Below are positions 21,181 through 21,418 of a stretch of DNA of 64,000 nt, piece after piece (positions within the stretch are counted from its first letter, which is position 1; the number at the start of each line of letters is the position of its first letter). The notes beneath the pieces were generated by a model, which worked only from the letters and a program-made list of their open reading frames with translations, made no database searches and was not told where the DNA came from. This stretch comes from Escherichia coli (GTDB lineage: Bacteria; Pseudomonadota; Gammaproteobacteria; Enterobacterales; Enterobacteriaceae), in NCBI RefSeq assembly GCF_003334355.1, contig NZ_QOWP01000019.1, one strand, 5' to 3'. The position numbers were made by a program, and so were the translations under genes.

Positions 21181-21203
21181 AGCACCTCAGAATTAAAAAG
21201 GGC

Positions 21204-21383
21204 GAGGTTATCCCTCACCCTAAACGCATAAATGCCTGATGCGCTACGCTTATCAGGCCTACATAACTCCTGCAATATTTTGGATTTGCATGATTTGTAG
21301 GCCGGATAAGGCGTTCACGCCGCATCCGGCATGAACAACGCGCACTTAGTCAATAATCAGGATGTGAGGTTACCCCTCACCCT
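21204..21383. repeat. REP doublet flanked by 18-bp direct repeats
   Basis: REP palindromes at about 21234-21258 and 21300-21330; gaggttatccctcaccct at 21204-21221 recurs with one mismatch at 21366-21383. Confidence 0.6.
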
Positions 21384-21418
21384 GTCATATCCGTAAAAAC
21401 GGCATACAGAATATCACA

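Follow-up and report, generated by a model that had tools for sequence, protein, structure and literature searches.

In all likelihood, the spacer between mltA and tcdA in Escherichia coli records the insertion of a BIME-1 element at the mltA terminator, during which the terminator hairpin was duplicated and after which the element and one hairpin copy were repeatedly and precisely lost. The analysis was based on a 64-kb stretch of E. coli DNA (64,000 nucleotides of contig NZ_QOWP01000019.1), hereafter referred to as the window. The repeats which bracket the element derive from the target, the insertion is older than the split between E. coli and E. albertii, strains are polymorphic for exactly 162 bp and the same architecture is observed at a second E. 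coli locus. Neither a simple terminator pair nor a repeated unit thus describes this locus; it is a terminator with a copy on each side of an inserted element.

Both mltA and tcdA are encoded on the minus strand, and the 238-bp spacer (21181-21418) lies 3' of the former and 5' of the latter (Table 1). The initial annotation reported two REP palindromes flanked here by near-identical 18-mers, and both were recovered at those positions, GAGGTTATCCCTCACCCT (21204-21221) and GAGGTTACCCCTCACCCT (21366-21383) differing by a single mismatch with a start-to-start spacing of 162 nt. When up to three mismatches were allowed, the 18-mer matched the window at these two places only (expected 0.02), while none of 100 shuffled windows contained two or more matches, and chance similarity was ruled out on these two grounds. 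The full direct repeat is longer than the 18-mer, encompassing 20 nt with two mismatches, or the complete 23-nt stem-loop if a 2-nt AT insertion is allowed in the mltA-proximal copy.

Table 1. Features of the tcdA-mltA region (window positions) and BIME-1 positions in K-12 (positions in the extracted K-12 pieces).
Feature	Position	Strand	Basis
tcdA CDS	20374..21180	-	ORF list; RefSeq annotation of identical/near-identical DNA; sequence
tcdA Shine-Dalgarno GAGGTG	21183-21188	-	sequence
Copy D, predicted complete intrinsic terminator	21195..21221	-	terminator scan, RNA fold, orthologous hairpins
BIME-1 element, 137 bp	21222..21358	-	copies at other loci; Rfam ES036, naRNA4
Copy U, duplicated hairpin without T tract	21359..21383	-	sequence, fold, E. 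albertii comparison
162-bp segment (element plus one hairpin copy); register of boundaries ambiguous within the repeat	21222..21383	.	short versus long allele alignment
Ancestral spacer, mltA stop to hairpin, with small hairpin CCGTTTTTACGG	21384..21418	-	sequence
mltA CDS; stop TGA 21419-21421	21419..22516	-	ORF list, RefSeq annotation
BIME-1, cueO-gcd (K-12)	38600-38870		
BIME-1, yaaX-yaaA (K-12)	5500-5720		

On the minus strand, the 18-mers make up the core of a stem-loop of 23 nt, AGGGTGAGG-GrTAA-CCTCrCCCT, the sequence of the mltA terminator hairpin being AGGGTGAGGGATAACCTCACCCT. The tcdA-proximal copy (copy D) contains the first 18-mer, its stem-loop (21199-21221) reading AGGGTGAGG-GATAA-CCTCGCCCT and being followed by TTTT (21195-21198). 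The terminator scan returned a 9-bp stem with six G-C pairs, a 5-nt loop and TTTT(AATT) for this copy, its RNA fold reached -17.2 kcal/mol (z -4.1), and 14 nt separate its end from the tcdA ATG. With a G+C-rich stem-loop and a T tract located 3' of a gene, copy D is, by scan and fold, the predicted intrinsic (Rho-independent) terminator of mltA. The mltA-proximal copy (copy U) reads AGGGTGAGG-GGTAA-CCTCAC-AT-CCT, contains the second 18-mer and folds as the stem of copy D with a 2-nt AU bulge (-15.0 kcal/mol), the T tract being absent.

Comparison of the tcdA locus from the genomes of 80 species revealed a single copy of this hairpin, GGGTGAGG-loop-CCTCACCC followed by a T tract, in the outgroups. 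It occupies spacers of 75-77 nt in Citrobacter amalonaticus, C. sedlakii, Citrobacter sp. NCU1, Phytobacter massiliensis and several Enterobacter, and spacers of 70-109 nt in Leclercia, Lelliottia and Salmonella. The stretch between the mltA stop codon and the hairpin has the same layout in these outgroups, in short E. coli alleles and in the window. By BLAST, the 23-mer was located at 5720 places in 5424 of the 5426 complete E. coli genomes (median 1), and since it occurs at about one place per genome the hairpin is a resident single-locus terminator and not a dispersed repeat. The initial annotation held that a genomically unique 18-mer in a spacer invariant across strains would leave just a pair of terminator hairpins; the hairpin is indeed confined to one locus, but the spacer varies among strains. 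The sequence of the terminator stem, and not its structure alone, is conserved across genera, its 5' arm GGGUGAGG being similar to the Shine-Dalgarno region of tcdA (CUGAGGUG) and the 3' arm, CCUCAC, complementary to that region. A promoter scan of 21000-21600, which includes the interval from the terminator to the tcdA ATG, identified no sigma-70-like site, so that transcription of tcdA may involve read-through or attenuation, and the hairpin loop GATAAC, considered as a -10 element for tcdA, was dropped as unsupported.

The element between the two hairpins consists, in minus-strand order, of GATTATTGACTAAGTGCGCGTTGTTCA (21332-21358), a Z1 REP (21297-21331), an L linker of 34 nt (21263-21296), a Y REP (21233-21262) and TTTATGCGTTT (21222-21232). 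The Y and Z1 REPs are inverted relative to each other, with arms that are 93% complementary, and the linker is homologous to the L linkers of other copies. Among the matches listed, 137 nt match other Y-L-Z1 loci at 88.5-90% identity, and in genomes without the mltA-tcdA copy the best match is exactly 137 nt long and ends at the inner edges of U and D. Matching places number at least 39-40 per E. coli genome (median). One Y and one inverted Z1 joined by a 34-nt linker, an extragenic position with one unit per locus (here between the mltA stop and the tcdA start, at the 3' end of a transcription unit), many copies per genome and presence or absence between strains are all features of BIME-1 (RIP, RIB); the element itself is an ordinary, known BIME-1, and it is the configuration that is unusual and informative. 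The REP-derived Rfam families ES036 and naRNA4 match the REP stretch. Outer motifs are common to the copies at cueO-gcd, fepA-entD and the accessory tkt locus, giving a family consensus of TCAGATTrTTGACAAAGTGCGCGTTGTTCA-Z1-L-Y-GTTTTGCGTTTGTCATCAGTCTCTAA. The mltA-tcdA copy differs from other BIME-1 copies in being bracketed by a duplicated 23-nt target hairpin, in the shortening of both outer motifs (by ~3 nt at one end and ~15 nt at the other relative to the consensus) and in its linker, where the exact IHF consensus WATCAANNNNTTR was not matched (the cueO-gcd copy has AATCAATGGATTG); IHF binding is therefore not to be assumed for this copy.

Based on these comparisons, we propose the following history. 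The ancestral mltA-tcdA spacer would have held one terminator (9-bp stem, 5-nt loop, T tract) that ended 14 nt short of the tcdA start. A BIME-1 of 137 bp would have entered the 3' foot of the stem-loop, between stem and T tract, in a common ancestor of E. coli and E. albertii, with the 23-nt stem-loop then present on either side of the element. Copy D would have kept the T tract and remained terminator-like while copy U would have lost it, and mltA transcripts should accordingly read through U and the element and end at D. Subsequently, slipped mispairing or recombination of U with D would remove 162 bp and restore the 76-bp spacer, a loss that probably occurred more than once in E. coli and would account for the now empty site in about half of the sequenced strains.

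A survey of 26 REP clusters in 250 kb of K-12 sequence plus the window (~314 kb) showed how rarely such an arrangement arises. A flanking direct repeat above the null was found at one cluster, mltA-tcdA (score 15 versus a null maximum of 10), in keeping with the original remark that this is not the usual picture of REPs. The same architecture was nevertheless encountered at the accessory tkt (prohibitin-family) locus, the empty allele of which reads gtgagaa-GGGCCGCGAAAGCGGCCC-TTTTTTT. In ST131 the order is hairpin-TT-BIME-1-hairpin-TTTTTTT, and in PCP07014 it is hairpin-element-hairpin-element-hairpin-TTTTTTT (379-760 of the extracted locus) with a unit of 174 bp; across ST131, PCP07014 and EC24 the locus carries 0, 1 or 2 units of hairpin GGGCCGCGAAAGCGGCCC plus BIME-1 and always ends in hairpin and T7. 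As at mltA-tcdA, the tkt element lies between stem and T tract with Z1 first in the direction of transcription; it is full length, and its duplication of 18-20 nt has borders exactly at the hairpin feet. An independent case of hairpin-element-hairpin is present in Kosakonia sp. S29, where a different REP-bearing insert of ~145 nt separates two orthologous mltA hairpins (~1770-2000 of the extracted locus), Phytobacter massiliensis and Citrobacter having one hairpin copy at the orthologous site. An insert related to that of Kosakonia was also observed in Phytobacter diazotrophicus, with the upstream hairpin copy absent.

Other BIME-1 loci present a different picture. The cueO-gcd copy is full in 2741 of the 5426 genomes, and TGG replaces its 158-nt insert in the empty allele; comparison of filled and empty alleles disclosed no flanking repeat, the element abutting the foot of the cueO terminator hairpin. 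The yaaX-yaaA copy is complete in 3367 of 5426 genomes; where it is absent the site consists of one hairpin, TGCCGGATTGCCATCCGGCA, and where it is present a repeat of 10 nt occurs, the end of the Z1 REP serving as one of its two copies. The empty yaaX-yaaA site forms a perfect hairpin with an 8-bp stem, the arms of which match the REP stem base (TGCCGGAT...ATCCGGCA), and the cueO-gcd and yaaX-yaaA copies each lie at the foot of a terminator-like hairpin. Comparison at fepA-entD revealed neither a hairpin nor a flanking duplication. At smrB-yfcO, represented by four metagenome contigs, a BIME-1 has hairpin-like direct repeats on either side, GTGCCGGATGTGGCAC and CGCCGGATGCGGCG, which are distinguished by one compensated pair; this locus was not counted as a further hairpin duplication because its flank looks like an incomplete Z REP and the adjacent gene varies. 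The repeat thus has the character of a target-site duplication in being single-copy in empty sites (outgroups, short alleles and tkt), while its length is not constant (23; 18-20; 10; none at cueO-gcd and fepA-entD).

Concerning the manner in which the hairpin was duplicated, we tentatively propose cleavage of both strands at the hairpin 3' foot. Made in an extruded hairpin, the two cuts would lie one palindrome length apart, and repair synthesis would leave a copy of the hairpin on either side of the insert. Both strands of the mltA and tkt hairpins end in CCC followed by T, and at these two E. coli loci the stretch that was duplicated corresponds to the palindrome to within 1-2 nt. Ton-Hoang et al. 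(PMC3333891) described cleavage of single-stranded DNA by E. coli TnpA_REP, at CC|T next to REP hairpins and at C|T within linkers, a preference which the CCC|T feet fit; this agreement constitutes the support for a putative RAYT cleavage and joining at these junctions. The rayT gene (b0228) is present in K-12. HUH transposases of the IS200/IS605 type are, however, described as making no target duplication (PMC3333891, PMC2817692), and filled sites would for that reason normally be scarless. A simple two-strand HUH model would yield hairpin-element on one strand and element-hairpin on the other, so that an extra step of loop repair is needed. Hairpin duplication is, moreover, not general, since a long flanking repeat was found at 1 of the 26 REP clusters and most BIME-1 copies have none.

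The duplication could also have arisen by a replication template switch, in which a strand stalled at the hairpin would have copied part of a BIME-1 elsewhere and returned upstream, thereby copying the hairpin twice; we regard this as a possible but doubtful origin. Because both ends of the mltA-tcdA element fall short of the consensus, an outcome that arbitrary switch points would produce, such copy-choice fits at least as well as transposition, and the unequal length of the duplications (23 nt at mltA-tcdA versus 18-20 nt at tkt), the lack of one at most BIME-1 copies and the published behaviour of HUH transposases are all compatible with it. On the other hand, the junctions lack evident microhomology, the tkt element is of full length with a duplication bordered exactly by the hairpin feet, and the agreement of the two loci in element orientation and in insertion between stem and T tract would suggest recognition of the site. 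Survivorship may also have shaped this pattern: since an insertion that did not restore the hairpin beside the T tract would abolish the terminator, only those insertions which kept it there may have persisted. The rebuilding of the terminator next to the T tract would also suggest why such insertions are tolerated.

The age of the insertion at mltA follows from the Escherichia lineages sampled outside E. coli, namely E. albertii (NBRC 107761 and a similar metagenome contig), Escherichia sp. E1V33 and the divergent strain SCPM-O-B-8794, all of which share it together with its D-side junction. The strong divergence of the E. albertii copy argues against recent transfer and, taken with the common insertion, places the event before the E. 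coli/E. albertii split. While the E. albertii element lacks 11 nt at its left end, its copy U is a full 23-nt hairpin, AGAGTGAGAAATAATCTCGCTCT, which indicates that the original duplication spanned the whole stem-loop. U and D of E. albertii differ at 6 of 23 positions, all nine pairs being kept through two double changes and one G-U. The compensated changes in this copy U (~1795-1820 of the extracted locus) could reflect structural selection or templated correction within the palindrome.

Such pairing raises the question of whether the two hairpins are selected as a working pair, for instance by combining 3'-end protection with termination or by regulating tcdA. The perfect 9-bp stem that E. 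albertii U retains is what such selection would produce, as are the conservation of the stem sequence across genera and the relationship of its arms to the tcdA Shine-Dalgarno region. We nonetheless consider this unlikely, given that approximately half of E. coli lack the second copy and that concerted changes in palindromes can be generated by intrastrand template switching, with no need for selection. Selection of this type would be compatible with the insertion and duplication proposed above, since it concerns maintenance and not origin.

Comparison of the spacer across strains, as the initial annotation had advised, disclosed a presence/absence polymorphism equal in size to the repeat spacing. 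With a query of 501 bp that spans the spacer, full coverage was obtained in 2752 of the 5426 complete E. coli genomes; among the matches listed, the partly covered tcdA-mltA loci (~72% of the query) extend over 338-339 bp instead of 501 bp, and the short alleles have lost 162 bp (163 in three cases), i.e. the distance between the repeats. On alignment, the short allele has a 76-nt spacer with one hairpin in the layout of the outgroup genera, while K-12 carries the long allele, as does the window. On a neighbour-joining tree of tcdA and mltA coding sequence (1.9 kb, 16 sequences, without support values), short alleles are polyphyletic, occurring in at least three or four places, and the short O104:H4 and 2012C-4227 are nested beside the long XH990 and K-12. 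Their hairpins represent three haplotypes, GGGGTAACCTCACCC, GGGATAACCTCACCC and GGGATAACCTCGCCC, each obtainable by one exchange of U by D between the copies in extant long alleles. The polyphyly of short alleles and the explanation of their haplotypes by single exchanges point to recurrent precise deletion between the repeats, although the number of events is uncertain. SNPs in the flanks reveal recombination close to the site.

The short allele might alternatively be the retained ancestral state, the polymorphism then resulting from the insertion or its spread by recombination. Its layout is identical to that of the outgroup genera, and the earliest-branching E. coli sampled (UTI89, JJ1887, LWY24, FUJ80154 and WP4) are all short on the local tree. 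However, E. albertii, E1V33 and SCPM-O-B-8794 branch outside and share the insertion and its D-side junction, O104:H4 and 2012C-4227 are short yet nested among long alleles, and the polymorphism would need to have been kept across species splits, on account of which we judge retention to be quite improbable.

Deletion of the element from a filled site is consistent with the fold of the spacer as single-stranded DNA, in which the U hairpin, a long Z1-Y hairpin and the D hairpin together reach -51.8 kcal/mol, against -27.3 kcal/mol for shuffles (z -7.3). Direct repeats at the base of a large self-pairing structure are the classical substrate of slipped-strand deletion, and we infer that the loss probably proceeds by replication slippage and not by a transposase. 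Precise excision of Tn10 and Tn5 likewise occurs by slippage between target duplications and is stimulated by inverted repeats. In both situations direct repeats flank a self-pairing element and loss of the element with one repeat restores the original sequence, but the repeats here are hairpins of 20-23 bp, compared to 9 bp in the transposons.

Finally, that the 18-mers are a BIME flank motif and the whole 180-bp unit moves is barely credible despite the conserved flank motifs which BIME-1 copies carry outside the REPs, as the hairpin occurs about once per genome, matches elsewhere end at the inner hairpin edges (these two observations ruling out an element-borne motif), the hairpin stands alone in genera without this BIME-1, and the hairpin flanking the tkt element differs in sequence and matches the local empty site. 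From the BIME/REPIN-like unit with flanking duplications put forward in the initial annotation, the doublet and the duplication are consequently retained, while the 18-mer proves to be target DNA and not part of the unit.

Presence or absence of whole BIME-1 elements among E. coli strains has been known since 1997 (Bachellier et al. 1997, as summarised in PMC1187871). In the accessible literature, a scope that ends short of the 1997 article itself, we found no account of duplication of a whole terminator hairpin at a BIME-1, or of a role for it in precise loss or tandem gain. The locus resembles the REPIN/RAYT system (IS200/IS605 HUH type) in that the inverted REPs fold into one long hairpin, the feet are CCC|T and a RAYT gene, rayT, is present in K-12, which has the allele of the window (the RAYT gene of the strain sequenced here would lie beyond the window); it differs in its duplicated target of 19-23 bp, elements of the IS200/IS605 type being described without duplication. 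Tandem arrays of element and short flank in Pseudomonas REPINs, which the tkt array resembles, have been described as unexplained (PMC3337134), and the mechanism of REP-doublet mobilisation and the origin of tandem arrays are stated to be open (PMC3337134, PMC3333891). The repeat-insert-repeat layout of tkt also recalls CRISPR arrays, by way of analogy only. In those arrays, Cas1-Cas2 attacks opposite strands at the borders of a palindromic repeat and gap filling duplicates the repeat, an outline which the staggered cuts would share; here, in contrast, there are no Cas proteins or leader, and the inserts are copies of one element as opposed to diverse spacers.

Insertion at terminators or hairpins is also practised by class C bacterial group II introns and by IS1397 and ISKpn1, the latter two in REPs. 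The likeness is that a stem-loop at a gene end sets an insertion point which is harmless to the host. To our knowledge, however, these elements do not duplicate the whole hairpin. IS1397 is also cited in PMC3333891.

The mltA-tcdA locus combines the ancestral empty state, preserved in sister genera, with a filled state in which a complete terminator stem-loop is unambiguously duplicated and with re-emptied sites within one species, and the mltA and tkt terminator hairpins, both CCC|T-ended, offer concrete testable substrates. The 162-bp indel alters the mltA 3' UTR and the region just upstream of tcdA in about half of E. coli genomes. A more speculative generalisation, to which we give less credence than to the individual duplication routes, is that integration of BIME-1/REPIN elements is directed to the 3' feet of terminator hairpins through cuts of both strands at the two feet of the extruded palindrome, with whole-hairpin duplication as the footprint. 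If this were true, the scars found at mltA-tcdA, at tkt and in Kosakonia would for the first time document, at the sequence level, the entry of RAYT-mobilised elements into new sites, and tandem REPIN/BIME arrays would be explained by unequal exchange between duplicated hairpins.

A number of minor observations were made in the course of this work. The match to ES036 (CssrF sRNA) at 21255-21297 on the minus strand scored 46.5 bits versus a gathering score of 37.6, and since it falls on the L linker and the adjacent REP ends of the BIME-1, this "sRNA" family overlaps a repeat element. As the K-12 RefSeq table has no REP features, BIME-1 copies were located by pattern in 250 kb of K-12 sequence, which yielded two further loci. 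A metagenome scan with the loose pattern CCTACAAANNNTGCNNNTTCAAT returned 120 stretches, five of which are real BIME-1 (one E. albertii-like copy of the mltA-tcdA locus and four of smrB-yfcO), and a stricter BIME-1 pattern had no match in viral contigs. Further REP-like sequence is present at 20335-20379 in the convergent csdE-tcdA spacer (naRNA4, 26.9 bits, below the gathering score). Downstream of mltA, the window contains one initiator tRNA-Met gene (22725-22801), while K-12 has three in tandem (metZ, metW and metV).
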